From Shigella phage ESh12: a stretch of 39,704 bases of DNA. Under the pieces are notes generated by a model. It was not told where the DNA came from and did not search any database. It saw only the letters and a list, made by a program, of their open reading frames with translations. Each line of letters starts with the position of its first letter. The stretch's first letter is position 1. The stretch is from the sequence record ON528724. One strand, given 5' to 3'. Both the position numbers and the translations under genes were made by a program. This document shows positions 16,276-39,704 of this stretch, one piece after another.

Positions 16276-19200
16276 ATGAGCTACGACAAGACGAAACCAT
16301 CCGAGTATGATGGGTTATTTCAGAAAGCGGCAGATGAACATGGGGTCTCCTATGACCTGCTTCGTAAATTAGCATTCAACGAATCTGGCTTCAATCCGAA
16401 AGCCAAAAGCCCTACCGGGCCGTTGGGTCTCATGCAGTTCACTAAAGGTACGGCAGCGGGGCTTGGACTCAAGGTGACAGGGGGAGATGACGATGAGAGA
16501 TTCAACCCTGAGTTGGCTGTGGACGCAGCCGCTCGTCACCTGAGCGACCTAGTTAGGAAATACGACGGGGATGAACTCAAAGCGGCCCTAGCGTACAACC
16601 AAGGGGAGGGGCGTAATGGCGCTCCGCAAATGCAGGCTTATGACCGAGGCGATTGGGCCTCTATCAGCGAGGAGGGTCGCAACTACATGCGTAAACTTCT
16701 CGATGTGGCTAACAGCCCGCGCAAGGGAGACTTGGAGGCGTTCGGTGGGATAACCCCAAAGGCTAAAGGGATTCCTGCTGAGGACGCCTTTGCTGGAATC
16801 GGTAAGGCCGGGAAGGTAGGAACTGAGCTTCCACAATCAACTGGCTTTAAGCTGGATGGTGTGGAACAACAGGAACCTGCCGTACCGTTCACTAAGGATT
16901 TCTACGATAAACATGGAACTACCGTTGAGGAATATGAAAACCGTTCAACATTCTTCGGGATAAAGGACACCACAAGTGCCGAGCTTCATAACTCGCTATT
17001 GGGTGTTGCCTTCAATGCTGCGCGTTTTGATGATAGTTTTGACATCTTCAAGGACGCTATTACCCCAACTCGCTGGAACAGCACTACGTGGACGCCTGAG
17101 CAATTAGAGCGTATCCGTAACGAGGTAAAAGACCCAAACTACATCAACGTTGTTACTGGTGGAGACCCAGAGAATTTGGATGACCTGATTAAGCTGGCTA
17201 ATGAGAATGCGGCTATGGCTGCGAAGACTCGAGGTGCTGGTGTGGGAGCACAATTGGTAGGTGGAATCGTTGGGGCTGGTGTTGACCCCTTGAGCTATGT
17301 GCCGCTTGTTGGTGTTGCTGGAAAGGGTCTCAAGGTGGTAAACAAGGCGTTCGTTGTTGGTGCCCAAAGTGCAGCCTTGGGCGCAGTTTCAGAAGCTGTT
17401 CGCACATCCGTTGCTGGTGGTGAGGCGCACTATCAAGATGCAATCCTTGGGGGTCTTATGTTTGGGGCCGGGATGAGCGCAATAGCTGATGGTGTGAGTG
17501 CAGCCTTGGGCCGTGTTCGCGCTGGTCAAGTTAGTAACGACTTCGACCGCATGGCTACTCGGCTGGAGGCGCGTGAGGCTGCCTTTCAAGCTGGTGGCGA
17601 GGACTTAACACGTATGCCAACAGATGGTCGCTCCTTTGATGGGGAACATGCTGGGGTGAACTATTCTCCACTTGAAACTGAGCCGGGTGCTGTGGTGTTA
17701 CCACAAGGTCAAATCTTGAGTGACACCAACCCGATTAACCCTCAGACCCTTCAGGAATTTGAGCAGGTTAACCCTGAGCGAGCGGCTCGTGGTATCTCTT
17801 TGGGTGGATTCGCTGAGATTAGCCTCAAGACCCTTCGGTCGGAGAATGAGACTGTGCGCTCCATTGCGAGTGACCTTGTTCGTTCTCCAACAGGGATGGA
17901 ATCAGGCTCTAACGGTAAGTTCGGTTCGACTGCTTCTGACATTAAGGAGCGACTCCATTCGCTCAACCAGCGCACCTACAATCTGCTTTATGATGCTGTG
18001 CGCATAGCAATGAAAGACCCTGAGTTCTCTACAGGTGGTGTGAAGATGAGCCGTAAGGAAGTACGTCAGGAAATCTATAAGCGTGCTGCCTTAGCGATTG
18101 AGAGACCAGAGCTACAATCGGGACTCACAAAGGGAGAACGTAAGGTGATGGATATCCTGAAACAACACTTCGACCTCAAGCGCGAACTCATGGAAAACCC
18201 TGCTATCTTCGGGAACGTAAAAGCTCGTAGCATATTCCCCGGCTCACGCCATAACGGAACCTACGTGCCTAATGTGTATGACCGCGCTATAAAGTTGTAC
18301 ATGGTGAGTCGCTACGGTAACGAGGGACTACAACGGGCAATTGCAGAGTCGTGGCTTACATCTTACCGCGCTCGTCCAGAAGTCAAGGCGAGAGTCGATG
18401 AGTACCTGATGGAGCTTAACGGTCTCAAGACGGTACAGGAAGTAACACCAGATATGGTTCAGAAGCACGCTATGGACAAGGCGTATGGTATATCGCACAC
18501 TGACCAATTCACTTCCTCCTCTATCATTGATGAAAACCTTGAGGGTCTGGTTGGCATCGAGAACAATAACTTCTTGGAGGCCCGTAACATGTTCGACAGC
18601 GACATGGCTGTGACTCTCCCGGATGGTAGCACGTTCTCTGTGAACGACCTGCGTAACTACGATATGGCTGACATTCTTCCTGCTTATGACCGTCGAGTTG
18701 ATGGTGACGTGGCGATCATGGGTGGTTCTGGTAAGACGACGAAGGAACTGAAAGATGAAATCATGGCGCTGGACAAGCAGTCTGAGGGTAACGGCTCACT
18801 GAAAGGTGAAGTCGAAGCACTCAAGGACACCGTGAAGATTCTGACTGGTCGTGCCCGCATGAACCCAGAGGGAGCTTTCGGTACGATTCTTCGCTCCATG
18901 ACTGACTTGGCTTTCTTCGCTAAGAACTTCTACATGCCGTTCCAGAACTTCACAGAGGTTGCTGCTATGTTGAGTAAAGGAAACACATCTGCGGTACTTC
19001 ATGGAATCCCACTGCTTAACGATTGGGTTAGCCGGAGGAAGCCTATGAGCGGCTCTGAGATTAAGGAGATTCACGGTATGGTGTTCGGGAAGGAACTAGA
19101 CCAGCTTATGCGTCCGGGGCGTGAAGACCATATACGTCGCCTTCGGGAGTCTACTGACACTAACACAGTGGTGGCTAATGTGGTTGGGACTATTCGCTTC

Positions 19201-20244
19201 GGCACTCAGGAATTGTCTGCGCGTTCACCTTGGACGATGCTGCTTAATGGAACCTCTAACTACATCATCGATGCTGCCAGACAGGGTGTACTGGGTGATG
19301 TGGCTGGGGCAGCGCTCGCTGGGAAAGGCTCTAAGTTCGGTAAAGCGAATTACCTTAAGTCTGCCTCTGTGTCACCTGAGCAGTGGAAGGGAATAAAGCA
19401 GTTGTTCCGTGACCACGCTACTCGTGATGCTGACGGTAAGTTTACAATCCGGGACAAGCAGGCTTTCGCTAATGACCCACGGACTATGGACTTATGGCGT
19501 CTGGCTGATAAGGTTGCTGATGAGACTATCCTTAGGCCGCATAAGGTTTCCTCACAGGACACCAAGGCTTACGGAGCGGCTGTCAAGATGGTGATGCAGT
19601 TTAAGAACTTCGTAATCAAGTCTCTTAACTCGCGCTTCGTTAGGTTGTTCTATGACGCAACTAAGAACAACAGGGCTATCGATTCTGCGCTGACTGCAAT
19701 CATCTCTATGGGTCTGGCTGGTGGTTACTATGTTGCTCAGGCGCACTTGAAGGCTTACAGCCTACAGGAGCACAAGCGTAAGGAGTACCTCAAGAATGCT
19801 CTTGACCCTAAAATGATTGCCCACGCGTCATTATCCAGAAGTTCACACCTTGGTTCCCCACTGTCTGTCTATGATATGATTGGTGGCTTGTTCGGTAATG
19901 ATACCTACCAGTACACCCGCTCAACGGTGTTACCAAAGGAAAAGACCGAACGTGACCGCAACAAGGCTTGGACTGGTAAGGAGGTTGCGGGTAACATAGT
20001 AGGGGCGATATCCAACCAAGTACCAGCTGTAGGACTAGTTGGGAACATTGGGTCTACCGCCATGAATGCCTCTACGCTGCTTAGCTCTGATGGTAAGCAG
20101 AGTGAGGTAGAGTTCCGTACTGGTGTGTTCAACTCCATGCGTGAGCTTGTCCCCAATGACCCGCTGACACAACAGTTGATTATGCACATCTTCGAAGAGC
20201 AGGGCATCAAGATTAAGGATGATGCAACACGCCCTCGCCAATAA
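16276..20244 (+). CDS. 16: Internal virion protein D gp16 with N-terminal lytic transglycosylase domain
   Basis: 1322 aa; N-terminus LAFNESGFNPKAKSPTGPLGLMQFTKGTA is a soluble lytic transglycosylase motif with catalytic Glu. Confidence 0.92.
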   Translation: MSYDKTKPSEYDGLFQKAADEHGVSYDLLRKLAFNESGFNPKAKSPTGPLGLMQFTKGTAAGLGLKVTGGDDDERFNPELAVDAAARHLSDLVRKYDGDELKAALAYNQGEGRNGAPQMQAYDRGDWASISEEGRNYMRKLLDVANSPRKGDLEAFGGITPKAKGIPAEDAFAGIGKAGKVGTELPQSTGFKLDGVEQQEPAVPFTKDFYDKHGTTVEEYENRSTFFGIKDTTSAELHNSLLGVAFNAARFDDSFDIFKDAITPTRWNSTTWTPEQLERIRNEVKDPNYINVVTGGDPENLDDLIKLANENAAMAAKTRGAGVGAQLVGGIVGAGVDPLSYVPLVGVAGKGLKVVNKAFVVGAQSAALGAVSEAVRTSVAGGEAHYQDAILGGLMFGAGMSAIADGVSAALGRVRAGQVSNDFDRMATRLEAREAAFQAGGEDLTRMPTDGRSFDGEHAGVNYSPLETEPGAVVLPQGQILSDTNPINPQTLQEFEQVNPERAARGISLGGFAEISLKTLRSENETVRSIASDLVRSPTGMESGSNGKFGSTASDIKERLHSLNQRTYNLLYDAVRIAMKDPEFSTGGVKMSRKEVRQEIYKRAALAIERPELQSGLTKGERKVMDILKQHFDLKRELMENPAIFGNVKARSIFPGSRHNGTYVPNVYDRAIKLYMVSRYGNEGLQRAIAESWLTSYRARPEVKARVDEYLMELNGLKTVQEVTPDMVQKHAMDKAYGISHTDQFTSSSIIDENLEGLVGIENNNFLEARNMFDSDMAVTLPDGSTFSVNDLRNYDMADILPAYDRRVDGDVAIMGGSGKTTKELKDEIMALDKQSEGNGSLKGEVEALKDTVKILTGRARMNPEGAFGTILRSMTDLAFFAKNFYMPFQNFTEVAAMLSKGNTSAVLHGIPLLNDWVSRRKPMSGSEIKEIHGMVFGKELDQLMRPGREDHIRRLRESTDTNTVVANVVGTIRFGTQELSARSPWTMLLNGTSNYIIDAARQGVLGDVAGAALAGKGSKFGKANYLKSASVSPEQWKGIKQLFRDHATRDADGKFTIRDKQAFANDPRTMDLWRLADKVADETILRPHKVSSQDTKAYGAAVKMVMQFKNFVIKSLNSRFVRLFYDATKNNRAIDSALTAIISMGLAGGYYVAQAHLKAYSLQEHKRKEYLKNALDPKMIAHASLSRSSHLGSPLSVYDMIGGLFGNDTYQYTRSTVLPKEKTERDRNKAWTGKEVAGNIVGAISNQVPAVGLVGNIGSTAMNASTLLSSDGKQSEVEFRTGVFNSMRELVPNDPLTQQLIMHIFEEQGIKIKDDATRPRQ

Positions 20245-20262
20245 ACCCTCACTAAAGGGAGA
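20240..20262 (+). promoter_or_regulatory. T3-type phage RNAP promoter (phi17)
   Basis: AATAAACCCTCACTAAAGGGAGA followed by inverted repeat in leader. Confidence 0.8.
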
Positions 20263-20317
20263 GAGAGGTCACATTCTGGCCTCTTCTCTCTTAATGCTAA
20301 TTTACAAAGGAGGTCAC

Positions 20318-22279
20318 ATGGCTACAACTATTAAGACCGTGATGACTTACCCGCTGGATGGCTCCACTACGGACTTCAATATTCCGTTTGAGTATCTGGC
20401 TCGTAAGTTCGTCCGAGTGACACTTATCGGCGTTGACCGAAAGGAACTCATCTTGAATCAAGACTATCGTTTTGCGACTAAGACCACAATCTCCACAACG
20501 AGAGCATTGGGGCCAGCGGACGGTTATACTTTGATTGAAATCCGTCGATTCACCTCCACTACAGATCGTCTGGTTGACTTTACCGACGGCTCTATCCTGC
20601 GGGCATATGATTTGAACATATCTCAGGTTCAGACCCTTCACGTTGCTGAGGAAGCCCGTGACCTTACCGCTGATACAATTGGCGTTAACAATGATGGGAA
20701 CTTGGATGCTCGTGGTCGTCGTATCGTTAACGTTGCGGATGCGCAAGATGTAGGTGATGCAGTCAACTTAGGTCAAATCCAACGGTGGAACGACTCTGCG
20801 TTGAACTCTGCGAATCGAGCGAAACAGGAAGCTGACCGTGCGACCGCTCGTGCAAACGATGCGAACAACTCTGCGAACGCATCTGCAAGCTCTGCAAGCT
20901 CTTCTGCTGGGTCTGCTGAGGTGGCGAAACGATGGGCTACCAGTGATACAGTAGTTGAGAGTGACCTTGAGTCTTCTCGAACCTACGCGCTTCACTCCAT
21001 GTTATATCGGAATGAGGCTAAAGGTGCAGCCGACAGCGCAAAAACTTCTGAGGCCAATGCGAAGGCTTCCGAAAGTAACGCGAAGAACTCTGAGACCAAC
21101 GCTAAGTCCTCTGAGGTCAAAGCCAAGGCTTCTGAGGAACGAGCCATTGAGGAAGCCAGTAAGTTGGGCAATATGAATGACTTCGCGGCTGCGATTGATA
21201 GTGTGGATGGTAATCATGTGAATATGAAGGGAAACATTAAAACTCCCGGTAATATCACAGGTGGTGGCCTAATCGCTACCGGAGATGCCCGCGTTACCGG
21301 TACGATTGCTGCTGGTGAGTTCAGCACGCTAGGTAAGGAGGTCACTATAAATCAACGAACTAGTGACTGGCGTGTTCCACTGTATACATGGAAAGCCCTA
21401 AACTTACGTAACGACCTAGTTCAAGAGTTGCGCGATAATGGCGGCTCTGATCACTATAACCATTTATACCGCCTTCATATAGACAACCGACCTGTCCATG
21501 TAGGTAATAGGCAAGGATTACATATAGGGTGGAATGAGAATACCAACGGTGAATCTAACTTCATCAACAACCGTGGTGGCGGCGGTGGTGGTTTCATCTT
21601 CCGAACGGTGAACAATGAGAACACTGTAGAGACTGGAAGGGTGACTTTCACCGGAGGTGGTCAGGTTCACGCCAACCACTTCCAAGCCGCCAACGGTGCC
21701 CGAATTGAGGCGAACAACAACATCGTTGGTCAGAACCTCTACGCAGGAATGGGCAACGCGGCACTTGGCCCGGATGGGAACCTTAGCGGTGGCGTATGGA
21801 GTGGAGTAGGTGGCTCTTTATGGTCTTGCTTGAATGACCGATACCAGTTCGCCAAGCCTCCTGCTGGGGTTAGACTGTACACCGCCCGTGGTGGAGACTA
21901 CCTAGAGGGTAACGTTGATGGTAACTCAGTTGGTTTCCGCTGGTTCCTGTCTGACAGAAGGCTTAAAGAGAACCTCAAGGTTGTTCGCTCTGCTGATGAT
22001 ATGCTCAATATTATCCGCTCATATATTCCGGTTTCCTACAAATATAAGGACTCTGAGTACGTTGACAACCGTGGGAAGACTGTTACTATCACTGGTAAGA
22101 ACTCTCGTGCTGGTTTCATTACTCAGGACTTGATTCGAATCTGGCCAGAAGCGGTTGACGTAATGTCAGATGGGATGCAGTCTCCAGACCCTAACCAGAT
22201 TATTGGCGGACTGATGCTGCTTGTTAAGAACCTAGATGAACGTGTTCAGGCGCTTGAATCGAAGAGCACGACAGACTAA
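20318..22279 (+). CDS. 17: Tail fiber protein gp17 with C-terminal extension carrying a chaperone-like autoprocessing motif
   Basis: ATG at 20318 after AAGGAGG (the upstream start at 20219 in the ORF track runs over the promoter); conserved N-terminal tail-attachment domain MATTIKTVMTYPLDGS...; 653 aa; C-terminal SDRRLKENL motif. Confidence 0.9.
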   Translation: MATTIKTVMTYPLDGSTTDFNIPFEYLARKFVRVTLIGVDRKELILNQDYRFATKTTISTTRALGPADGYTLIEIRRFTSTTDRLVDFTDGSILRAYDLNISQVQTLHVAEEARDLTADTIGVNNDGNLDARGRRIVNVADAQDVGDAVNLGQIQRWNDSALNSANRAKQEADRATARANDANNSANASASSASSSAGSAEVAKRWATSDTVVESDLESSRTYALHSMLYRNEAKGAADSAKTSEANAKASESNAKNSETNAKSSEVKAKASEERAIEEASKLGNMNDFAAAIDSVDGNHVNMKGNIKTPGNITGGGLIATGDARVTGTIAAGEFSTLGKEVTINQRTSDWRVPLYTWKALNLRNDLVQELRDNGGSDHYNHLYRLHIDNRPVHVGNRQGLHIGWNENTNGESNFINNRGGGGGGFIFRTVNNENTVETGRVTFTGGGQVHANHFQAANGARIEANNNIVGQNLYAGMGNAALGPDGNLSGGVWSGVGGSLWSCLNDRYQFAKPPAGVRLYTARGGDYLEGNVDGNSVGFRWFLSDRRLKENLKVVRSADDMLNIIRSYIPVSYKYKDSEYVDNRGKTVTITGKNSRAGFITQDLIRIWPEAVDVMSDGMQSPDPNQIIGGLMLLVKNLDERVQALESKSTTD

Positions 22280-22497: not shown

Positions 22498-22764
22498 ATG
22501 AGCGACAAGACTTTAATCAAGCTGCTGGAGATGCTAGACACGGAGATGGCACAGCGTATGCTTGCTGACCTCCAGAGCGAGGAACGCCGAACGCCGCAGC
22601 TTTACAACGCAATCGGCAAACTGTTAGACCGCCATAAGTTCCAAATCAGTAAGCTGACCCCGGATGAGAACATCCTTGGCGGTCTCGCGGCTGGTCTGGA
22701 AGACTACAACAAAGTGGTCGGCCCTAATGGTCTGACTGATGATGAGACTATCACGCTACAGTAA
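22498..22764 (+). CDS. 18: Terminase small subunit gp18
   Basis: 88 aa, syntenic, similar to T7 gp18. Confidence 0.85.
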   Translation: MSDKTLIKLLEMLDTEMAQRMLADLQSEERRTPQLYNAIGKLLDRHKFQISKLTPDENILGGLAAGLEDYNKVVGPNGLTDDETITLQ

Positions 22765-22853: not shown

Positions 22854-23306
22854 ATGCTAAAACTTTTACGCAGCGCACTCCCTTGGGTACTCGCCGGGAC
22901 ACTCTTTATGGGTGGCTGGCACTTAGGGTCAACCCATGAGAGAGCAAACTGGAAGGAGGTAATCCAAAATGAATACATTGCGAAAACAAAAGCAACCGCA
23001 GCAACTCAGGCAGAGGTCAGTCGGGTATCCCGTGAGTACCAAGAAGAGGTTGCAGCCATTGAGGGCAGCACTGATAGGATGCTTAATGACCTGCGTAGTA
23101 ATAATAAGCGGCTGTCAGTCCGCATCAAAACCCTTACCGGACTACCAGAAGATAACGGTAGATGCGAGTTTAATGGTCGAGCCGAACTACACGAGTCAGA
23201 TGCTAAGCGTATTATCGGAATAACCCAAGCTGCTGATGCTCACGTAAGAGCGCTCCAGCGTACTATTAAGGAGATGCAGAATGAGCGACACCCAAGCAAA
23301 CCGTAA
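22854..23306 (+). CDS. 18.5: i-spanin (Rz-like) gp18.5
   Basis: ATG at 22854 after GGGAGG; N-terminal TM segment [17 protein letters not shown], coiled-coil periplasmic domain; similar to T7 gp18.5. Confidence 0.8.
22969..23223 (+). CDS. 18.7: o-spanin (Rz1-like lipoprotein) gp18.7, nested in 18.5 in +1 frame
   Basis: RBS GGAAGGAGG; lipobox-like signal [15 protein letters not shown]; Pro-rich mature part. Confidence 0.75.
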   Translation: MNTLRKQKQPQQLRQRSVGYPVSTKKRLQPLRAALIGCLMTCVVIISGCQSASKPLPDYQKITVDASLMVEPNYTSQMLSVLSE

Positions 23307-25044
23307 TGCGCTAATCATCGCGCAGCTTAAGGGTGACTTCGTGGCCTTCCTGTTCGTATTGTGGAAGGCTTTGGCTCTCCCGCCGCCGACTAAGTGTCAG
23401 ATTGATATGGCCCGGTGTCTGGCTAACGGAGACAACAAGAAGTTTATCCTACAGGCTTTCCGTGGTATCGGTAAGTCATTCATCACCTGTGCGTTCGTTG
23501 TGTGGACGTTATGGCGTGACCCTCAGTTGAAGATACTAATTGTCTCTGCATCCAAAGAACGTGCGGACGCTAACTCCATCTTCATCAAGAACATCATTGA
23601 CCTGCTGCCCTTCTTGGCTGAGTTAAAGCCTCGCCCCGGTCAGCGTGACTCTGTGATTAGTTTCGATGTTGGCCCTGCCAAGCCTGACCACTCTCCGTCT
23701 GTGAAGTCGGTGGGTATCACTGGTCAGTTGACTGGTAGCCGTGCTGATATCATCATAGCGGATGACGTTGAGATTCCGTCTAACTCCGCAACTCAAGGTG
23801 CCCGTGAGAAGCTGTGGACTCTGGTGCAGGAATTTGCTGCGCTTCTGAAACCACTGCCAACTTCTCGCGTTATCTACCTTGGCACGCCTCAAACCGAAAT
23901 GACCTTGTACAAGGAACTCGAAGATAACCGTGGGTACACCACAATCATCTGGCCTGCGCTCTATCCGCGTAGTCGTGAGGAAGACTTGTACTATGGCGAC
24001 CGTCTGGCCCCGATGCTCCGCGAAGAGTTCAACGATGGGTTCGAGATGCTCCAAGGTCAACCGACTGACCCCGTGCGCTTCGATATGGAAGACCTCCGGG
24101 AGCGTGAGTTGGAATACGGTAAGGCTGGCTTCACTTTGCAGTTCATGCTCAACCCGAACCTTAGTGATGCCGAGAAGTACCCCTTACGCCTCCGTGACGC
24201 TATCGTGTGCGGTCTGGACTTCGAGAAAGCCCCAATGCATTACCAGTGGCTTCCGAACCGTCAGAATCGCAATGAAGAGCTTCCTAACGTGGGACTTAAG
24301 GGTGATGATATCCATAGCTATCATTCGTGCAGCCAGAACACTGGACAGTACCAGCAACGCATCCTCGTGATTGACCCAAGTGGTCGCGGTAAGGATGAGA
24401 CAGGTTACGCAGTGTTGTTCACCCTGAATGGCTACATCTATCTGATGGAAGCTGGCGGGTTCCGCGATGGTTACTCCGACAAGACCCTTGAGTCCCTCGC
24501 TAAGAAAGCGAAGCAGTGGAAGGTTCAGACAGTGGTCTTCGAGAGTAACTTCGGGGATGGTATGTTTGGTAAGGTATTCAGCCCGGTTCTCCTGAAACAC
24601 CATGCAGCGCAGCTTGAAGAGATTCGTGCTCGTGGTATGAAGGAACTACGCATTTGTGATACGCTGGAACCTGTACTCTCTACGCACCGCCTTGTGATTC
24701 GTGACGAGGTGATTCGTGAGGACTACCAGACTGCCCGTGACGCTGATGGCAAGCACGACGTTCGCTATTCGCTGTTCTACCAGTTGACCCGTATGGCTCG
24801 TGAGAAGGGCGCTGTGGCCCACGATGACCGACTTGATGCATTAGCATTGGGTGTGGAGTTCTTACGCTCTACGATGGAACTGGACGCCGTGAAGGTGGAG
24901 GCTGAGGTGCTTGAGGCGTTCTTAGAGGAACACATGGAGCACCCAATCCATTCGGCTGGTCATGTAGTTACCTCTGTGGTTGACGGTATGGAACTCTATT
25001 GGGAGGATGACGATGTGAATAGCAACAGGTTCATTGACTGGTAG
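23281..25044 (+). CDS. 19: Terminase large subunit gp19
   Basis: 587 aa; ATPase motifs ([16 protein letters not shown]) and nuclease domain; similar to T7 gp19. Confidence 0.95.
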
Positions 25045-25124
25045 TTATGCATATTGAGCGCATAAGGATTCAATTAGACCACGGATGGTCACTTTAAGAA
25101 ATTCCTTAAGAATCAATGAGTTTG

Positions 25125-25147
25125 AATTAACCCTCACTAAAGGGAGA
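25125..25147 (+). promoter_or_regulatory. T3-type phage RNAP promoter (phiOR, right-end replication promoter)
   Basis: Exact consensus AATTAACCCTCACTAAAGGGAGA. Confidence 0.85.
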
Positions 25148-25287
25148 GAGGGGACTTAAAGCTACTATATAGGTTAGTCATTCAGGTTATGCAATGACCC
25201 TTTATGCACTAAAAGTCTCCTCTGTGATTGGTGATATTATCATTGTATAATCACCCTACCTTAGAGCAACTGAAAGGAGGTGGCTCA

Positions 25288-25437
25288 ATGTTACGCTTGC
25301 TGATTGCCCTGCTGCGTCATAGAGTCACTTGGCGATTTCTTCTGGTACTTACTGCTGCCCTTGGGTACGCAGGTCTTACTGACCACCTCGGTCAACTGGA
25401 AGTGGCCTTTTGCTCTATACTCTCTTGTGGGGATTAA
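25288..25437 (+). CDS. 19.5: gp19.5 small membrane protein
   Basis: 49 aa MLRLLIALLRHRVTWRFLLVLTAALGYAGLTDHLGQLEVAFCSILSCGD closely matches T7 gp19.5 from memory; RBS GAAAGGAGGTG. Confidence 0.7.
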   Translation: MLRLLIALLRHRVTWRFLLVLTAALGYAGLTDHLGQLEVAFCSILSCGD

Positions 25438-25519
25438 ATTATTGTTGATGACCGACAAGCGGCTCTGAGGGATTCGTAGGTATAGTTTCACTACACCAAC
25501 TCATCCCTGTAGAGTCAAC

Positions 25520-25620
25520 CCTAAAGGTTATACCTAAAGATGCCCTGTAGTTCGTAATGGTCTTACAGGGTCTTCTGGTCTAACCTATGGTGTGGCCTTA
25601 CCTAAAGTGGTTGCCTAAAG
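25520..25620. repeat. Right-end heptamer array (CCTAAAG copies)
   Basis: CCTAAAG at 25520, 25533, 25601, 25614. Confidence 0.5.
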
Positions 25621-25659
25621 AGACCCTTTAAGAATTTACCACAAAAATCTGAATGGGTA

Positions 25660-25895
25660 TCTCACAGTTCAAGAACCCAAAGTACCCCCCCCATAGCCCT
25701 CTTAAAGCCACCTAAAGCCATCCCTACCCCTAGGGTTTAACCTTCGGTTAACCTTGGGTATCTCCTCAAGTGGCCTATAGGATAGCCTAAAGTGTTGCCT
25801 CAAGTCAATACCTAAAGTGTCGGATGGCTTAAAGAGGCCTTAAAGAGTGTCCTAGTGTACCAGTTCGATAGTACATCTCTATGTGTCCCTATCTG
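25660..25895. repeat. Terminal repeat of the mature genome (single copy here, as at a concatemer junction)
   Basis: Begins TCTCACAGTTCAAGAACCCAAAGTACCCCCCC, matching T7/T3 left-end sequence from memory; end boundary is approximate. Confidence 0.5.
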
Positions 25896-25897
25896 TT
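25891..25897 (+). promoter_or_regulatory. Concatemer-junction class II pause/termination signal for phage RNAP (ATCTGTT)
   Basis: CCCTATCTGTTA at end of terminal repeat, same context as T7 CJ signal. Confidence 0.45.
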
Positions 25898-25904
25898 AGC
25901 CATT

Positions 25905-25980
25905 CCTAAAGTAAACCCTAAAGCCACTACCTAAAGACCAGACCTAAAGCCATCACCTAAAGAGTGCCGCTATCTTAAAG
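25905..25980. repeat. Left-end heptamer array (CCTAAAG copies)
   Basis: CCTAAAG at 25905, 25917, 25930, 25943, 25956; CTTAAAG at 25974. Confidence 0.55.
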
Positions 25981-26052
25981 ACAACCAGACCGATAAGACC
26001 CATTGTTAACCTGTAGTGATGCCTTGTAGTTTCCTATAATATCCAACGTTGT

Positions 26053-26075
26053 CTGTTTACCCTCACTAAAGGGAA
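26053..26075 (+). promoter_or_regulatory. T3-type phage RNAP promoter (phiOL, left-end replication promoter)
   Basis: TGTTTACCCTCACTAAAGGGAAT followed by AT-rich tandem repeat. Confidence 0.65.
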
Positions 26076-26129
26076 TGAGGGATACCTAAAGAGGGAATAA
26101 AAGATTTAATAAAAGATTTAAATTAATGG

Positions 26130-26165
26130 TTGACTTTAAGTTACCTTTAAAGCTATTATTCATCA
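26130..26165 (+). promoter_or_regulatory. Host sigma70 early promoter (A1 position)
   Basis: -35 TTGACT at 26130, -10 TATTAT at 26154. Confidence 0.6.
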
Positions 26166-26258
26166 CGTCAACGGGACAACGGCCTTAAAGCCACTCCCTG
26201 AGATACCGGAGTCAACCGGATAAGTAGACAGCCTGATAAGTCATACGAAAAACAGGCA

Positions 26259-26294
26259 TTGACAACATGAAGTAAACGCAGTAAGATGCACAAC
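26259..26294 (+). promoter_or_regulatory. Host sigma70 early promoter A2
   Basis: TTGACAACATGAAGTAAACGCAGTAAGAT; -35 TTGACA, 17-nt spacer, -10 TAAGAT; near-identical to T7 A2 from memory. Confidence 0.85.
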
Positions 26295-26368
26295 ATAGCG
26301 TCAACCACCAAATCGGTGTCTTCTAGGTGACTTAAGCGCACCACGGCACATAAAGCGAAACAAAATGG

Positions 26369-26404
26369 TTGACAACATGAAGTAAACACGGTACGATGTA
26401 CCAC
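26369..26404 (+). promoter_or_regulatory. Host sigma70 early promoter A3
   Basis: TTGACAACATGAAGTAAACACGGTACGATGTACCACATG identical to T7 A3 from memory. Confidence 0.9.
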
Positions 26405-26599
26405 ATGAAAGACACCGAGTGTCGTAGGTGTAAAAACGCGACATAGTGGATAGATGGCGAAAGCACAAGCGACCACGATAATAAAGAGCTTGTCGCACTT
26501 ATAACGCAAGTGATGGCTAACACTGAAATAGCCTCGGCTCGACGAAACTGTAGCCTAAAGTTCTTTAACAATCTGGATAATAGCTCTTGAGTGTACCGA

Positions 26600-26660
26600 T
26601 GTATAAGCGAATAACTCAAGGTCGCACTGAAAGCGTGGCCTTTATGATATTCACTTAACA
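26600..26660 (+). promoter_or_regulatory. RNase III-type hairpin (R0.3 position)
   Basis: TAGCTCTTGAGTG...AACTCAAGGTCGCACTGAAAGCGTGGCCTTTATGATATTCACT. Confidence 0.6.
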
Positions 26661-26684
26661 CGAACTAACATGAGGTAATACCAA

Positions 26685-27143
26685 ATGATTTTCACTAAAG
26701 AGCCTGCTAACGTCTTCTATGTACTGGTGTCAGCTTTCCGTTCTAACCTTGATGATGAGGTGAACATGAGTCGCCACCGCCACATGGTGAGCGAATTACG
26801 TGCCGCACCGGGCATCTACGGCGAACTTGAGTCTACCGATTTGACCGGGTGCTATCGTGAGGCAATCGCAAGCGCACCGACTGAGGAAAAAACGGTTCGT
26901 GTACGCTGCAAGGACAAGGCGCAGGCACTCAATGTTGCACGCTTAGCTTGCAATGAGTATGAGCAAGATTGCGTACTGGTATACAAATCACAGACTCACA
27001 CAGCGGGATTGGTGTACGCTAAAGGTATCGACGGGTATAAGGCTGAACGTCTGCCGGGTAGCTTCCAAGAGGTGCCTAAAGGCGCACCACTGAAAGGGTG
27101 CTTTACGATTGACGAGTTCGGACGCCGCTGGCAAGTGCAGTAA
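26685..27143 (+). CDS. 0.3: gp0.3 S-adenosylmethionine-degrading enzyme (T3 SAMase, anti-restriction)
   Basis: 152 aa, first gene after A1-A3 and R0.3; recognised as the T3 0.3 protein from memory (MIFTKEPA...GRRWQVQ). Confidence 0.85.
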   Translation: MIFTKEPANVFYVLVSAFRSNLDDEVNMSRHRHMVSELRAAPGIYGELESTDLTGCYREAIASAPTEEKTVRVRCKDKAQALNVARLACNEYEQDCVLVYKSQTHTAGLVYAKGIDGYKAERLPGSFQEVPKGAPLKGCFTIDEFGRRWQVQ

Positions 27144-27145
27144 GT

Positions 27146-27195
27146 GTTAAACTCAAGGTCGCTCCATGCGAGTGGCCTTTATGATTATCACTTAA
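27146..27195 (+). promoter_or_regulatory. RNase III-type hairpin
   Basis: AAACTCAAGGTCGCTCCATGCGAGTGGCCTTTATGATTATCA. Confidence 0.55.
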
Positions 27196-27214: not shown

Positions 27215-27499
27215 ATGCGCTTAAGTAAAGATACAGCGGTAGCTCTGAGGTCAGCAATTGAATCCAGAGCCGCACACAACGATGGAGGTCTTGCGGATGT
27301 TGCACGGGCTTACAAGGAGAAAGGCCTAACATTCCGTAGATTCATGTGGGACTGTTATCACGCAGTGGGCTTTAAAGAGACCACCAGAATCATATCAGAG
27401 CACAACACGGTGACAGTGATTGGTGGGCATATAACAGACGTCAATGATTCGCACATCGAAACTATGCTCAAGGTTGCACTGAAAGACATGGCTTATTAG
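27215..27499 (+). CDS. Early hypothetical protein
   Basis: 94-aa ORF, ATG after AAAGGAAG; no recognisable motif. Confidence 0.5.
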   Translation: MRLSKDTAVALRSAIESRAAHNDGGLADVARAYKEKGLTFRRFMWDCYHAVGFKETTRIISEHNTVTVIGGHITDVNDSHIETMLKVALKDMAY

Positions 27500-27502
27500 T
27501 GA

Positions 27503-27550
27503 TTAACTACAGGTCGGTAGCTCGTAGCGGCCTGAATGATAATTACTAAA
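27503..27550 (+). promoter_or_regulatory. RNase III-type hairpin variant
   Basis: AACTACAGGTCGGTAGCTCGTAGCGGCCTGAATGATAATTAC. Confidence 0.4.
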
Positions 27551-27919: not shown

Positions 27920-27960
27920 TAACGCGATTTGCAATCACTGGGCAACAGACTTCAAGTCTA

Positions 27961-28010
27961 TCAAGTGTTAAACTCAAGGTCGCTCCATACGAGTGGCCTT
28001 TATGATTAAC
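27961..28010 (+). promoter_or_regulatory. RNase III-type hairpin
   Basis: TAAACTCAAGGTCGCTCCATACGAGTGGCCTTTATGATTAAC. Confidence 0.55.
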
Positions 28011-28105
28011 ATTACAGGAGAGCATGATATGTTCGAGAAGGTTGTGAACTGGTCTATCGGGCCGATTATCATCTTAATCATTATGAACAACTTAGGGTAT
28101 TTCTC

Positions 28106-28303
28106 ATGATGGCAGCACTAATCGCACTGGTCTATCTGTGCATCGCAATGTACTTTATGCGAGACTTTAAGCGCGGTCTGGCAATACACAAGGCAACACT
28201 GAGTTACTTTAAGTGGGGATTCATCCCACGGTTTACGGTTCGTGAACGCAACGGACGCTTTAAGGCCAACAAGGTGGGAGTATTCTACATTGCAACCCAT
28301 TAA
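28106..28303 (+). CDS. Early small membrane protein (65 aa)
   Basis: Hydrophobic N-terminus MMAALIALVYLCIAMYFM then basic tail; preceded by a 26-codon hydrophobic mini-ORF at 28029..28109. Confidence 0.35.
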   Translation: MMAALIALVYLCIAMYFMRDFKRGLAIHKATLSYFKWGFIPRFTVRERNGRFKANKVGVFYIATH

Positions 28304-28742
28304 GACCTGCGTAGCGTGTGGTGAGATAAAGCCGCTTGAGTTCTACACAAAGAATGCTGCGTCACCTGATGGACACATCGGCACATGCAAGGCGTGTAAA
28401 GCCAAACAGCAGCGCGAAAGGCGCTTAAAGGCGAAAGCCGCCTCTGTGCCTACCGATAAGGCGCTTAAGGATGCAAAGCGGAGACGCAACAACCACCTGA
28501 AAGTAAACTATGGTATTGATGAACTGACCTACCGTAAAATGTATGAGGAGCAGAACGGAGTGTGCGCCATATGCAAGCACCCGGAGAGTATAGCCGGTAG
28601 GCAGCTCTGTGTTGACCACTCCCACATCACCGGGGACGTTCGGGGTCTTTTATGTTCAAACTGCAACAGGGGAATAGGGCTACTAAAGGATTCACCTGAA
28701 TTGTTACGCAATGCCTTCCACTATTTAACGGGCAAACTTTAA
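28290..28742 (+). CDS. Endonuclease VII-like (His-Me finger / HNH) nuclease
   Basis: CAICKHPE...LCVDHSHITGDVRGLLCSNCNRGIGLL matches the T4 endonuclease VII zinc-binding/catalytic signature from memory; start uncertain (TTG 28290 after GGTGGGAG, or GTG 28242). Confidence 0.7.
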   Translation: MQPIKTCVACGEIKPLEFYTKNAASPDGHIGTCKACKAKQQRERRLKAKAASVPTDKALKDAKRRRNNHLKVNYGIDELTYRKMYEEQNGVCAICKHPESIAGRQLCVDHSHITGDVRGLLCSNCNRGIGLLKDSPELLRNAFHYLTGKL

Positions 28743-28800: not shown

Positions 28801-29910
28801 ATGACTTTCACCGAAGCACAAGCCGCACTCGAAGCTATCCGCAACCTACCGATTGAGCGCATGAACGAGCGCCAGCCAATGCTGGTGGCTCTTGTGGCTG
28901 CTATCGTGAACTCTGAGACTCAGGAGGGGCAACTGACAGCGGCTAAAGGAAACCGGAGTCTTGAGGACATGGACTACTGGCAGACGCTGGCAGAGCGCAT
29001 GAGGGATGTTGGTTTCATTAAGTTAGGAAATGGTCACTTTAGCGCAGCATATGAGCACGCGTTGTTACCGGGCAAGGTCATCAAGGTAGGCTTTAAGAAA
29101 GAGGACTCAGGCGCAGCCTATGCAGCCTTCTGCCGTATGAACCAAGGCCGGGAAGGTATCCCTACGGTGTACGACATTCAGCGCCACGCTGGTTGTTACA
29201 CGGTGGTTCTTGACTATCTGAACCCGCTTAACGACTGGTGCTACGGTGAGAGTGACAAGGTGCGTCACCACTTCAAAGCCGCACGGGAAATCATTGAGGA
29301 GGATTGCTTCGATACCGCCGAAGAGTACCCAATAAGTGACGGGTTCATTGAGACCTGCAAGGATATCCGCAAGTTCTTCTTAGGCATCGCATCGTTCGAT
29401 TGTCACAGCGGTAACATGATGAAAGACCAGATGGGACGCCTGATTATCACAGACCCGGTATCATTCAGCGCAGACGACAAGTTAAAGCCGGGTGAGTTCC
29501 ACTGTGACCCGGATGAACTCATCGCTGAGATTGAGGCGCTGAGAGCGCAGGAAGCGATTGACCGCTGTAAGGCACGCAAGGCACGCCGTGACCCTAAAGG
29601 AGACTTTCAGGTAGCACGAAAGGCCCGTGCCAAATGGCGCAGAAAGGCCTCTAAGCGTGCTAAACGTGACGCTAAGGTACTCGCTAAGATGCGCATGGAT
29701 GCCAACGAGCAACGCAGGGCCGAGCCTAGGGCACGTATGTTGTGGGGCGATAAGCACTGGCGCAACGCTTGGGTGCAGCACATGAATGTTGACTTCGCAC
29801 GGCTCGAACTGTTAGCAGCCGCACAGATGGCACAGATAGACCACAAGGCTATCGTATGGGGCAAGCCGTTACACATAGACGCATACCTTGACAAGAGACT
29901 GCAAGGCTGA
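28801..29910 (+). CDS. 0.7: gp0.7 serine/threonine protein kinase (host shut-off)
   Basis: 369 aa; GNGHFSAAYEH, VIKVGFKKEDSGAAY, HSGNMM, ITDPVSFS and basic C-terminal domain match T7 gp0.7. Confidence 0.9.
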   Translation: MTFTEAQAALEAIRNLPIERMNERQPMLVALVAAIVNSETQEGQLTAAKGNRSLEDMDYWQTLAERMRDVGFIKLGNGHFSAAYEHALLPGKVIKVGFKKEDSGAAYAAFCRMNQGREGIPTVYDIQRHAGCYTVVLDYLNPLNDWCYGESDKVRHHFKAAREIIEEDCFDTAEEYPISDGFIETCKDIRKFFLGIASFDCHSGNMMKDQMGRLIITDPVSFSADDKLKPGEFHCDPDELIAEIEALRAQEAIDRCKARKARRDPKGDFQVARKARAKWRRKASKRAKRDAKVLAKMRMDANEQRRAEPRARMLWGDKHWRNAWVQHMNVDFARLELLAAAQMAQIDHKAIVWGKPLHIDAYLDKRLQG

Positions 29911-29911
29911 T

Positions 29912-29965
29912 AGAGTCTTTTCTTACAGGTCATCACTAGGTGGCCTGAATAGGAACGATTTATTC
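29912..29965 (+). promoter_or_regulatory. RNase III-type hairpin (R1 position)
   Basis: CTTACAGGTCATCACTAGGTGGCCTGAATAGG upstream of gene 1. Confidence 0.45.
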
Positions 29966-29980
29966 ACAATGAGGCAAACA

Positions 29981-32635
29981 ATGAACATCATCGAAAACAT
30001 CGAAAAGAATGACTTCTCCGAAATCGAACTGGCTGCTATCCCGTTCAACACACTGGCAGACCACTACGGTAGCGCATTGGCTCGTGAACAACTGGCTTTA
30101 GAACATGAGTCTTATGAGCTAGGCGAGCGCCGCTTCCTCAAGATGCTTGAGCGTCAAGCGAAAGCTGGTGAGATTGCAGACAACGCAGCCGCTAAGCCAT
30201 TACTCGCTACGCTTCTCCCTAAGTTAACCGCACGCATCGTTGAGTGGCTCGAAGAGTACGCATCGAAGAAAGGCCGCAAGCCTAGCGCATACGCACCGCT
30301 CCAGTTACTCAAGCCGGAGGCCTCCGCGTTTATCACCCTGAAAGTTATCCTTGCATCACTGACCAGCACGAACATGACAACCATTCAGGCCGCTGCTGGT
30401 ATGCTGGGGAAGGCCATTGAGGATGAGGCACGTTTCGGGCGTATCCGTGACCTCGAAGCGAAGCACTTCAAGAAGCACGTTGAGGAACAGCTCAACAAGC
30501 GCCACGGGCAAGTCTACAAGAAGGCCTTTATGCAGGTGGTCGAGGCCGATATGATTGGTCGAGGCCTGCTTGGTGGCGAGGCGTGGTCTAGCTGGGATAA
30601 AGAAACCACGATGCACGTAGGGATTCGCCTGATTGAAATGCTGATTGAATCCACGGGTCTGGTGGAATTACAGCGACACAACGCAGGTAACGCAGGCTCT
30701 GACCATGAGGCACTGCAACTGGCCCAAGAGTACGTCGATGTGTTAGCGAAGCGTGCAGGCGCTCTGGCGGGCATCTCTCCGATGTTCCAGCCGTGTGTCG
30801 TACCGCCTAAACCTTGGGTAGCAATCACCGGAGGCGGCTATTGGGCTAACGGTCGCAGACCTTTGGCACTCGTTCGCACTCACTCTAAGAAGGGACTGAT
30901 GCGCTATGAGGATGTTTACATGCCAGAAGTTTACAAGGCGGTCAACATCGCACAGAACACCGCATGGAAAATCAACAAGAAAGTTCTTGCGGTTGTCAAT
31001 GAAATTGTTAACTGGAAGAATTGCCCGGTAGCAGACATTCCATCACTGGAGCGCCAAGAGTTACCGCCTAAGCCGGACGACATTGACACCAACGAGGCAG
31101 CACTCAAGGAGTGGAAGAAAGCCGCCGCTGGTATCTATCGCTTGGACAAGGCACGAGTGTCTCGCCGTATCAGCTTAGAGTTCATGCTGGAGCAGGCCAA
31201 CAAGTTTGCAAACAAGAAAGCAATCTGGTTCCCTTACAACATGGACTGGCGCGGTCGTGTGTACGCTGTGCCGATGTTCAACCCGCAAGGCAACGACATG
31301 ACGAAAGGTCTGCTGACCCTCGCTAAAGGCAAGCCAATCGGTGAGGAAGGGTTCTACTGGCTGAAAATCCACGGTGCGAACTGTGCGGGTGTCGATAAGG
31401 TGCCTTTCCCTGAGCGCATCGCGTTCATTGAGAAGCACGTAGACGACATTCTGGCTTGCGCCAAAGACCCAATCAATAACACTTGGTGGGCTGAGCAGGA
31501 CTCACCGTTCTGTTTCCTCGCGTTTTGCTTCGAGTATGCAGGCGTTGCGCACCACGGTCTGAGCTACAATTGCTCTCTGCCGCTGGCGTTCGATGGGTCT
31601 TGCTCCGGTATCCAGCACTTCTCCGCGATGCTCCGCGATGAGGTAGGCGGTCGCGCGGTTAACCTACTGCCAAGCGAAACCGTGCAGGACATTTACGGCA
31701 TCGTTGCACAGAAAGTAAACGAGATTCTCAAACAGGATGCAATCAACGGCACACCTAACGAGATGATTACCGTGACCGATAAGGACACCGGGGAAATCTC
31801 TGAGAAGCTCAAGCTGGGAACCTCAACGCTGGCGCAACAGTGGCTGGCGTATGGTGTAACCCGTAGCGTAACTAAACGTTCGGTCATGACGCTGGCTTAC
31901 GGTTCCAAGGAGTTCGGCTTTCGTCAACAGGTACTGGACGACACCATTCAGCCTGCGATCGACAGCGGTAAGGGCTTGATGTTCACCCAACCTAACCAAG
32001 CGGCTGGCTATATGGCTAAGCTGATTTGGGACGCGGTGAGCGTGACCGTAGTCGCAGCGGTTGAGGCGATGAACTGGCTCAAGTCTGCCGCTAAGCTGCT
32101 GGCTGCTGAGGTCAAGGACAAGAAGACCAAGGAGATTCTGCGCCACCGTTGCGCGGTTCACTGGACTACGCCGGACGGCTTCCCGGTCTGGCAGGAATAC
32201 CGCAAGCCACTCCAGAAGCGTCTCGATATGATTTTCTTAGGGCAATTCCGTCTGCAACCGACGATTAATACCCTCAAGGATTCAGGCATTGACGCACACA
32301 AGCAGGAATCTGGCATCGCTCCTAACTTTGTTCACTCACAGGATGGTAGCCACCTGCGCATGACAGTCGTTTATGCTCACGAGAAGTATGGTATTGAGTC
32401 CTTTGCGCTCATCCATGACAGCTTTGGGACTATTCCGGCAGACGCTGGTAAGCTCTTTAAGGCTGTGCGTGAAACGATGGTTCTCACCTACGAGAACAAC
32501 GATGTGCTGGCAGACTTCTATGACCAGTTTGCAGACCAGCTACACGAGACCCAACTTGACAAGATGCCTCCTCTTCCGAAGAAAGGGAACCTGAACCTGC
32601 AAGACATTCTCAAGTCTGACTTTGCCTTTGCATAA
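29981..32635 (+). CDS. 1: Single-subunit DNA-dependent RNA polymerase gp1, T3 specificity
   Basis: 884 aa from MNIIENIEKNDFSEIELAAIPF; near-identical to T3 RNAP from memory; consistent with T3-type promoters throughout. Confidence 0.97.
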   Translation: MNIIENIEKNDFSEIELAAIPFNTLADHYGSALAREQLALEHESYELGERRFLKMLERQAKAGEIADNAAAKPLLATLLPKLTARIVEWLEEYASKKGRKPSAYAPLQLLKPEASAFITLKVILASLTSTNMTTIQAAAGMLGKAIEDEARFGRIRDLEAKHFKKHVEEQLNKRHGQVYKKAFMQVVEADMIGRGLLGGEAWSSWDKETTMHVGIRLIEMLIESTGLVELQRHNAGNAGSDHEALQLAQEYVDVLAKRAGALAGISPMFQPCVVPPKPWVAITGGGYWANGRRPLALVRTHSKKGLMRYEDVYMPEVYKAVNIAQNTAWKINKKVLAVVNEIVNWKNCPVADIPSLERQELPPKPDDIDTNEAALKEWKKAAAGIYRLDKARVSRRISLEFMLEQANKFANKKAIWFPYNMDWRGRVYAVPMFNPQGNDMTKGLLTLAKGKPIGEEGFYWLKIHGANCAGVDKVPFPERIAFIEKHVDDILACAKDPINNTWWAEQDSPFCFLAFCFEYAGVAHHGLSYNCSLPLAFDGSCSGIQHFSAMLRDEVGGRAVNLLPSETVQDIYGIVAQKVNEILKQDAINGTPNEMITVTDKDTGEISEKLKLGTSTLAQQWLAYGVTRSVTKRSVMTLAYGSKEFGFRQQVLDDTIQPAIDSGKGLMFTQPNQAAGYMAKLIWDAVSVTVVAAVEAMNWLKSAAKLLAAEVKDKKTKEILRHRCAVHWTTPDGFPVWQEYRKPLQKRLDMIFLGQFRLQPTINTLKDSGIDAHKQESGIAPNFVHSQDGSHLRMTVVYAHEKYGIESFALIHDSFGTIPADAGKLFKAVRETMVLTYENNDVLADFYDQFADQLHETQLDKMPPLPKKGNLNLQDILKSDFAFA

Positions 32636-33011: not shown

Positions 33012-33060
33012 GTTAAACTTAAGGTCATCAACAACGGTGGCCTTTGTGATTAACTTTCAA
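33012..33060 (+). promoter_or_regulatory. RNase III-type hairpin (R1.1 position)
   Basis: TAAACTTAAGGTCATCAACAACGGTGGCCTTTGTGATTAAC. Confidence 0.5.
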
Positions 33061-33086
33061 TACACATCAACATGAGGTAAGATACT

Positions 33087-33232: not shown

Positions 33233-33505
33233 ATGGGACGTATCTATAGCGGCAACCTGAACGATTACAAAGATGCGGTAGCGCGTCTACAGGAAGACCA
33301 TGACGTGACCGTGAAGATGGAGTCATTCAGCTATGAAAACCCAGCGAAGATGTGCAGGTCATCAGGTGAGGTTCTCCGCGTGTTCACACGCTCAGGGCAT
33401 CCGGTGGCATCCAGAACCTTCGAGCATAGTGACAGCGATGTGCAAATCAACGCGCAGACTGCATGGCTCCGCAAGGTTCACAGCGATTTGAAACACTGGA
33501 AGTAA
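33233..33505 (+). CDS. 1.2: gp1.2 (host dGTPase inhibitor family)
   Basis: 90 aa from MGRIYSGNL, ends HWK; similar to T7 gp1.2; ATG choice among three adjacent Met is uncertain. Confidence 0.75.
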   Translation: MGRIYSGNLNDYKDAVARLQEDHDVTVKMESFSYENPAKMCRSSGEVLRVFTRSGHPVASRTFEHSDSDVQINAQTAWLRKVHSDLKHWK

Positions 33506-33525
33506 TAACCCTCACTAACAGGAGA
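33503..33525 (+). promoter_or_regulatory. T3-type phage RNAP promoter (phi1.3 position)
   Basis: TAATAACCCTCACTAACAGGAGA. Confidence 0.75.
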
Positions 33526-33531
33526 AACGAA

Positions 33532-33948
33532 ATGAGAAACATCGAACGGTTCAACGCAAAGACTGAACCTTGCGGTGACTGTCTACGTTGGACTGGTCGA
33601 ATCCAGCCTAACGGTTACGGACAGTTTCGCCTCGAAGGTAAAACACAATACGCACATCGAGCAGCTTACAAGCTGTTTATCGGTGAATTGGACAATAAAG
33701 ATACAGTCCTCCACTCGTGCGATAACAGGTGGTGTGTGAACCCTGAGCATTTGACCAAGGGAACGCAGGCCGATAACCTGAAAGACATGGCGATAAAGGG
33801 TAGGCACCACGCCATTAAGATTCCGAACGATGCCATTGAGGGCATCCGTAAAGACCCTCGCTCTGCCACTGTGATAGCGGCTGAGTGGGGCGTCCATCCA
33901 ACAACCATCCATAAGATTAAGCGAAACATCAACAGGAGATTCGTATGA
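33532..33948 (+). CDS. HNH endonuclease (free-standing, homing-endonuclease-like)
   Basis: 138 aa; HSCDNRWCVNPEHLTKGTQADN HNH core, Cys-containing N-terminal region, C-terminal helix-turn-helix-like tail; stop overlaps ligase ATG (ATGA). Confidence 0.8.
   Translation: MRNIERFNAKTEPCGDCLRWTGRIQPNGYGQFRLEGKTQYAHRAAYKLFIGELDNKDTVLHSCDNRWCVNPEHLTKGTQADNLKDMAIKGRHHAIKIPNDAIEGIRKDPRSATVIAAEWGVHPTTIHKIKRNINRRFV

Positions 33949-38373: not shown

Positions 38374-39704
<1,331 letters not shown>

Follow-up and report, generated by a model that had tools for sequence, protein, structure and literature searches.

A probable T3-type concatemer junction around the single terminal repeat of Shigella phage ESh12

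Introduction

The concatemer junctions of the phages T7 and T3 belong to a thoroughly described system. Concatemers contain a single terminal repeat at each junction, and synthesis provides the second copy (PMC10438801; PMC5557969). Directly downstream of the repeat, the phage RNA polymerase pauses together with lysozyme and interacts with the terminase (PMC3276506). T7 (NC_001604) has a repeat of 160 base pairs (bp), short-repeat arrays on both sides and a class II pause site. The T3 ends were determined from read starts, yielding a 231-bp repeat (PMC5557969), and the ends of SH1 and SH2 by run-off sequencing (PMC4925675). Here, the corresponding region of Shigella phage ESh12 (record ON528724) is described. 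The window, i.e. the whole stretch of DNA analysed, comprises 39,704 nucleotides (nt). With high probability, it represents a rotated Teetrevirus genome with collapsed repeats, in which the single terminal repeat corresponds to the replicative concatemer junction. ESh12 is one more member of the system: its junction is a known and ordinary T7/T3 structure in a new isolate, already annotated in relatives.

More distant Autographiviridae (K11, K1F, gh-1 and SP6) possess a direct repeat of 174–216 bp, with TCTC at its start and a (T)ATCTGT motif at its end. The repeats of K11 and gh-1 are annotated, that of K1F was measured (178 bp), and that of SP6 we take to end at 174 (174 bp). In the conserved junction order, an imperfect hairpin located some 170–190 nt upstream is followed by a short-repeat array, the terminal repeat, the TATCTGT motif and a second array.

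The terminal repeat and its boundaries

The terminal repeat of ESh12 is present as a single copy on the plus strand at 25660–25890 (231 bp, TCTCACAG...TGTGTCCCT) and matches the annotated repeats of end-mapped relatives over the full length. A first-pass annotation of the region had recognised a T7/T3-type genome left end within a concatemer junction. All elements named in that annotation were recovered at the given positions or close to them. The left end is present: TCTCACAGTTCAAGAACCCAAAGTACCCCCCC starts at 25660. TCTCACAG and TGTGTCCCT occur once each in the whole window. All 231 bp align, from position 1 onward, with records that have annotated terminal repeats, namely phiSG-JL2 (1–230, 'left terminal repeat'), phiYeO3-12 (1–232, 'redundant repeat') and Citrobacter phage SH1 (1–230). 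Further counterparts are found in Kpn-11mx (1–227) and phiYe-F10 (1–227). This is the opposite of an alignment to an internal part of related genomes. Another 35 match places represent the second repeat copies at the opposite end of the relatives' records.

Junctions were assembled from the right end and the left end of T3 (NC_003298), phiSG-JL2, phiYeO3-12 and T7, and were aligned to the window. The two repeat copies are identical within each of these phages when both ends are compared. Between the end of gene 19 and gene 0.3 (25045–26700), all four built junctions, that of T3 included, are collinear with the window, and both repeat boundaries coincide. The coincidence with T3, phiSG-JL2 and phiYeO3-12 supports the first-pass interpretation as a junction with a terminal repeat. 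The five-way alignment misplaced the right boundary of the shorter T7 repeat, and the low identity at 25860–25899 is an artefact; the T7 right boundary was taken from a separate alignment and an exact 17-mer match.

T3, phiSG-JL2, phiYeO3-12 and SH1 share the same repeat (230–232 bp, 91–96% identity) and the same boundaries (TCTCAYAG...TGTGTCCCT) with ESh12. As in ESh12, ATCTGTT follows directly, and the flanking CCTAAAG arrays, the promoter phiOR, gene 19.5, the promoter phiOL and the promoters A1–A3 occur in the same order. The ESh12 record differs from this group in its rotation and its one repeat copy; the junctions themselves differ by small indels only. The right-end array shows a 12-nt deletion relative to T3, phiSG-JL2 and phiYeO3-12, and six heptamers are located downstream of the repeat versus four in T3. 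TCTCACAG stands where T3 has TCTCATAG. A tract of eight C at 25685–25692, counted as seven in the first-pass annotation, compares with six C in phiSG-JL2 and phiYeO3-12.

T7 and ESh12 have the same architecture. Across the right boundary, 17 bases are identical (TGTGTCCCTATCTGTTA), the left-boundary context is near-identical, and the heptamer unit is the same. The conserved left-end cut context of ESh12 spans 25636–25667 on the plus strand, with the predicted left end between 25659 and 25660; within it, T7 shares AAAAATCTGA and TATCTCACAGT without any difference. The repeat of ESh12 exceeds that of T7 by 71 bp, and T7 contains a palindrome, CCCCCATAGGGGG, where ESh12 has C8-ATAG-CCC and no palindrome. 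The promoters of ESh12 are of the T3 type, those of T7 of the T7 type. Judged by repeat homology, location, the presence of the terminase, the polymerase and 13 promoters, and the flanking CCTAAAG units, the ESh12 junction can be assigned to the T7/T3 type (Studiervirinae).

The repeat lengths of close relatives span 227–242 bp. Their C tract comprises five to eight C, and a homopolymer sequencing error is conceivable. In K11 and K1F, the boundary lies one base off relative to the motif (annotated boundary of K11 at 180, ATCTGTT at 182). Such variation would be consistent with true virion ends of ESh12 shifted by a few bases or more from 25660–25890. A shift is very unlikely: the flanks of each boundary differ by no more than one substitution from those of T3-like phages with mapped ends, and the length differences among the relatives stem from internal indels, not from moved boundaries.

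A rotated record with collapsed repeats

The ESh12 record appears to hold the complete genome of a T3-like podophage (Teetrevirus) in circularly permuted form. Serratia phage 2050H2 is the closest relative, with 97.8% identity to positions 1–25000 of the window over 99% of the length. The order of the open reading frames (ORFs) is the T7/T3 gene order, rotated. The end of the window joins its start (39704 to 1) in frame within the gene 4 primase/helicase, as observed with the last 600 and the first 600 bases. A 421-nt probe over this join aligned in a single piece to the primase/helicase gene of 2050H2 (99.8%).

A search of the whole window yielded neither a second copy of the terminal repeat nor an overlap of the window ends; the repeat is present once. 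The window is therefore not a linear, virion-style record. It is best read as a rotated circle, in which the two 231-bp virion repeats would be collapsed into one copy at 25660–25890. Assemblers commonly place the repeats of such phages mid-contig (PMC10438801; PMC5557969). The junction order is visible in the window because the assembly is rotated and the repeats are collapsed, and no sequencing of concatemers is implied. The collapsed sequence is identical to that of the biological concatemer junction: right-end unique DNA, one repeat, left-end unique DNA.

The presence of one copy and no physical end is the sole point in favour of an alternative in which the genome is circular or packaged by headful, the region is ordinary intergenic DNA in its interior, and the likeness to phage ends is incidental. 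This explanation has a negligible probability and is contradicted by the sequence comparisons. Homology to annotated terminal repeats with experimentally mapped ends extends over the full length (91–96% identity), the T7/T3 gene order is complete and accompanied by a T7-type terminase, and collapsed repeats in rotated contigs are documented for this phage group.

For annotation, the rotated-circle reading suggests a re-orientation of the record to start at 25660, with the 231-bp repeat appended on the right. For the virion DNA, this predicts 39704 + 231 = 39935 bp. Several related database records label the counterpart of the intergenic region 25438–26684 as 'hypothetical proteins'; it is better annotated as regulatory and packaging DNA. 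The segment 26395–26600 seemed unique in comparison to T3 and was rejected as such, as many relatives share it at ≥99%.

The ATCTGTT pause motif

ATCTGTT is located on the plus strand at 25891–25897, directly after the repeat and within CCCTATCTGTTA (25887–25898). Its predicted position between the repeat and the second heptamer array was correct, and it is the sole copy on the plus, i.e. transcribed, strand of the window, where about 2.7 are expected by chance. Both strands together hold four copies versus 5.3 expected; the 7-mer itself is not enriched. The scarcity on the plus strand is a weak hint at avoidance. The significance of the motif would rest on its position and on conservation at that position. 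The other three copies are located on the minus strand (15076–15082, 15890–15896 and 17619–17625).

The class II signal of phage RNA polymerases consists of ATCTGTT preceded by A, C or T, and the polymerase stops 6–8 nt downstream (10.1101/2021.01.11.426313; PMC11617373; 10.64898/2026.02.12.705533). Termination needs a downstream run of T; without it, the polymerase pauses (PMC11617373). T-ATCTGTT at 25890–25897 agrees with this rule in the exact motif, its location on the non-template strand and the preceding base. No T-run follows in ESh12, where the sequence runs on as AGCCATTCC. By the preceding T and the missing T-run, the ESh12 motif is of the pause type, like the one at the junction of T7. 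It groups with the pause-type junction signals and differs from the terminator of the preproparathyroid hormone (PTH) gene. A pause is expected 6–8 nt downstream, at approximately 25903–25905.

The same seven bases are annotated as 'CJ terminator' in phiSG-JL2, directly after its repeat. In K11, a 'concatemeric junction' is annotated at the repeat boundary, and ATCTGTT lies there as well. SP6 has ATCTGTT at 174. A first scan of the sequence collection used ATCTGTT itself and cannot show its conservation. A second scan was keyed on the left boundary only: the pattern AAAAATCTGARTGRSTATCTCAYAG recovered 33 IMG/VR contigs, 15 of them with enough downstream DNA. ATCTGTT occurs 144–240 nt after the TCTCAYAG left end in 10 of the 15. 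The remaining five carry ATCTGTA or ATCTGTC (four contigs) or ACCTGTT (one contig). The last base varies also among described phages. The 178-bp repeat of K1F is followed by T-ATCTGTA, and gh-1 has ATCTGTC/ATCTGTA at the boundary; ESh12 has ATCTGTT.

Any base change abolishes the T7 class II signal (10.1101/2021.01.11.426313), yet ATCTGTA or ATCTGTC stands at the boundary in K1F, in gh-1 and in four IMG/VR contigs. TATCTGT might mainly be a recognition or cutting element of the terminase, or a host sigma-70 extended –10 promoter (TGnTA), with pausing secondary or confined to some lineages. The similar TATCT contexts of the left (GGGTA|TCTCACAG) and the right (CCCT|ATCTGTTA) predicted cut site fit a terminase element. 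A promoter is consistent with a report of the T7 junction as a TGnTA promoter for the Escherichia coli polymerase (10.64898/2026.02.12.705533), and the window retains TGTTA. Such a main role is nevertheless rather unlikely. The exact 7-mer is kept across the T7-like, T3-like, K11 and SP6 lineages despite diverged flanks, and T7 genetics ties recognition of the signal to concatemer processing (summarised in PMC3276506). The polymerases of the deviating phages may also have a slightly different signal. Pausing remains the preferred function of ATCTGTT in ESh12.

Short-repeat arrays

Both strands of the window together contain 49 copies of CYTAAAG, versus 8.5 ± 3.0 copies in dinucleotide shuffles (none of 100 shuffles reached 49). 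The count and mapping of the heptamers bore out the first-pass annotation of arrays. On the plus strand, 16 of the 31 CCTAAAG/CTTAAAG copies are located within 25520–25980; the rate elsewhere in the window predicts 0.21 in 561 bp. The arrays had been described as flanking the repeat. Four copies upstream and six downstream agree with that description, and another six are located inside the repeat (starts at 25701, 25711, 25786, 25811, 25828 and 25839).

The right-end array (25520–25632, plus strand) comprises two pairs of CCTAAAG, each with a spacing of 13 nt (starts at 25520, 25533, 25601 and 25614), and an inverted CTTAAAG at 25626–25632. The left-end array (25905–25980, plus strand) comprises six CCTAAAG/CTTAAAG with a spacing of about 13 nt. 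Its units start at 25905, 25917, 25930, 25943, 25956 and 25974, i.e. at distances of 12, 13, 13, 13 and 18 nt; TRF reported a period of 13 at 25917–25962.

Copy numbers shift by unit-sized indels among close relatives. The compared T3-like and T7-like sequences have four to seven downstream heptamers, and phiYeO3-12 has two extra units upstream. Among the junctions compared, the CCTAAAG unit is confined to the T7 and T3 groups; K11, gh-1 and SP6 are without CCTAAAG arrays. Other short repeats occupy the same junction positions elsewhere: CCATAAG/CCTACAG in K1F (L027/L030), and GGATAACT and CCTTATG in the contigs L039 and L045. The sequences compared indicate a conserved junction architecture with a lineage-specific short-repeat unit, and ESh12 is not unusual in this respect.

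The 1983 T7 genome paper reportedly described the short repeats without an assigned function, and a search of the literature library used yielded no paper which assigns one to CCTAAAG; none of the 15 papers listed includes this heptamer. The arrays could be bound by a phage protein that co-evolves with them and prepares the junction for cutting and for duplication of the repeat. This is a speculative reading with a low probability; if true, it would give a function to the short repeats of the 1983 paper. T3 and T7 are packaging-specific. The heptamer arrays are unlikely to set this specificity, because both phages share the unit and recognition takes place near the termini. Packaging recognition has been located within 5% of the genome termini (PMC3276506).

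Inverted repeats and hairpins

Downstream of gene 19.5, an imperfect inverted repeat with 19-nt arms and a 3-nt loop is located at 25468–25508, centred 172 nt left of the start of the terminal repeat; the first-pass annotation did not include it. Its DNA fold has –7.2 kcal/mol (z = –2.3). T7 has the same imperfect 19-nt inverted repeat at 39568–39608, 190 nt left of its repeat, with an identical dot-bracket structure including the mismatch positions (z = –3.5). Changes on both sides were found in 7 of the 15 pairs, contributed by five distinct sequences from about three independent lineages. In total, 96% of the cells were paired versus 34–44% with the partners slid. The compensatory changes are suggestive of covariation across T7 and another lineage. 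The structure may act in processing as a hairpin or cruciform. Together with the lineage-specific short-repeat unit in a conserved architecture, the covariation is a mildly useful comparative by-product.

A second inverted repeat is located inside the terminal repeat at 25737–25751. The first-pass annotation had described a GTTAACC/GGTTAA hairpin here. The inverted repeat is present and weak; it actually reads TTAACC (25737–25742), TTC, GGTTAA (25746–25751), with the 5' arm in the context GTTTAACC. A strong structure was ruled out, as the DNA fold reaches –3.6 kcal/mol (z = –1.2). TRF reads the same bases as an 11-nt tandem repeat at 25737–25759. The element is supported by its conserved position, by one compensatory pair in comparison to T7 at the same relative place (TTAACC/GGTTAA versus GTCAACC/GGTTGAC) and by a flipped loop. 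The T7-like IMG/VR contigs L018 and L031 keep the small stem and have the loop flipped from TTC to GAA. A flip of this kind is expected if the palindrome itself is maintained. In L031, ACCTGTT replaces ATCTGTT at the junction.

Within the right-end array, a 7-bp inverted repeat, CCCTGTA/TACAGGG, at 25543–25570 has –5.4 kcal/mol (z = –3.2). Two longer inverted repeats in the same region, with arms at 25513–25540/25571–25598 and at 25561–25573/25621–25633, yielded no significant fold (z = –0.9 for the latter).

Proposed processing of the junction

The proposed mechanism is modelled on work on T7 and T3. Late transcription by the phage RNA polymerase would start at phiOR (25125–25147) or further upstream and would proceed from gene 19.5 over the inverted repeat and the right-end array and across the terminal repeat. 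The polymerase may then pause a few nt past ATCTGTT, and a pause is proposed instead of termination because no T-run follows. The paused polymerase–lysozyme complex would help to recruit the terminase, gp18/gp19, and the prohead. Cuts by the terminase are predicted at the right boundary, 25890|25891, and at the left boundary, 25659|25660. Nicking and strand-displacement synthesis would duplicate the single repeat, possibly via a hairpin intermediate at 25468–25508. As a result of the duplication, every packaged genome would have the repeat at both ends. A product of T7 gene 3.5, the lysozyme, is known to strengthen pausing of the RNA polymerase (PMC3276506).

Several observations weigh against this reading of the junction. 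The virion ends at 25660 and 25890 are placed by homology, and polymerase pausing at the ESh12 junction is a prediction by analogy to T7. The small inverted repeat within the terminal repeat folds no better than its shuffles. The upstream inverted repeat at 25468–25508 is presumed to equal the published T7 'hairpin end', the position of which we assumed. In the lineages with ATCTGTA or ATCTGTC, the motif may serve a role besides or instead of class II pausing, because these relatives vary the last base although single changes abolish the T7 signal.

Flanking promoters and genes

The terminal repeat is located between gene 19.5 with phiOR on one side and phiOL, the early host promoters and gene 0.3 on the other, like in T3, phiSG-JL2 and phiYeO3-12. 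The phage promoter phiOR (25125–25147, plus strand, AATTAACCCTCACTAAAGGGAGA) reads towards the junction and served as the reference for the T3-type promoter family, which has 13 members. phiOL (26054–26076, plus strand) is another member of the family. Both align with the annotated phiOR and phiOL, respectively, of T3, phiSG-JL2 and phiYeO3-12. No further gene separates gene 19.5 (25288–25437, plus strand; 49 amino acids) from the junction. Its counterparts in T3, phiSG-JL2, phiYeO3-12 and T7, annotated with 150 nt, align with it; its product has no Pfam match. A terminator scan between phiOR and the junction gave one weak five-pair site inside gene 19.5, at shuffle frequency, and no convincing one. 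Inside the terminal repeat, a leftward sigma-70-like site (25808–25779) corresponds to the annotated T3 promoter A0. Host promoter-like sites downstream of phiOL are located at 26130–26159, 26259–26287 and 26369–26397.

The trans-acting proteins of the pathway are encoded on the plus strand. Gene 18 (22498–22764) encodes the small terminase subunit (Pfam DNA_Packaging_2, E = 1.2e-16), and gene 19 (23281–25044) the large subunit, a nuclease/ATPase (Terminase-T7_RNaseH-like, E = 3.3e-40; Terminase_6N). The single-subunit RNA polymerase is encoded by gene 1 (29888–32635; RNA_pol, E = 8e-111; RPOL_N). The listed ORF of gene 1 begins at TTG; the true start codon probably lies within it. Gene 3.5 (37806–38261) encodes the amidase/lysozyme (Amidase_2, E = 1e-16). 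The window also encodes endonuclease I, and the product of gene 0.3 is an S-adenosylmethionine lyase.

Just downstream of phiOL, an AT-rich stretch at 26096–26121 contains a perfect 12-nt tandem repeat, AATAAAAGATTT, with 2.2 copies. This layout of promoter and AT-rich DNA recalls the secondary replication origins of T7. Repeat families with AAGGTCGC...GTGGCCTTTATGAT are located at 26595–26653, 27132–27190, 27487–27545, 27953–28011, 1063–1107 and 33033–33077. Records of T3-like phages annotate the corresponding sites as targets of RNase III processing, e.g. R0.3.

Three homing-endonuclease-like ORFs (28242–28742, 33463–33948 and 36914–37390) are located between conserved genes. One is of the Endonuclease VII type (E = 5e-24), and two belong to HNH_3 (E = 6e-9 and 5e-15). 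The tail-fibre ORF (20219–22279) combines a T7-type N-terminal domain with a C-terminal Peptidase_S74 intramolecular chaperone domain, unlike the T3 fibre of about 558 amino acids. A phage promoter copy at 20229–20262 is located inside the 5' end of this ORF, and the Pfam domain begins at residue 34; for these reasons, the real start of the tail-fibre gene is probably near 20315.

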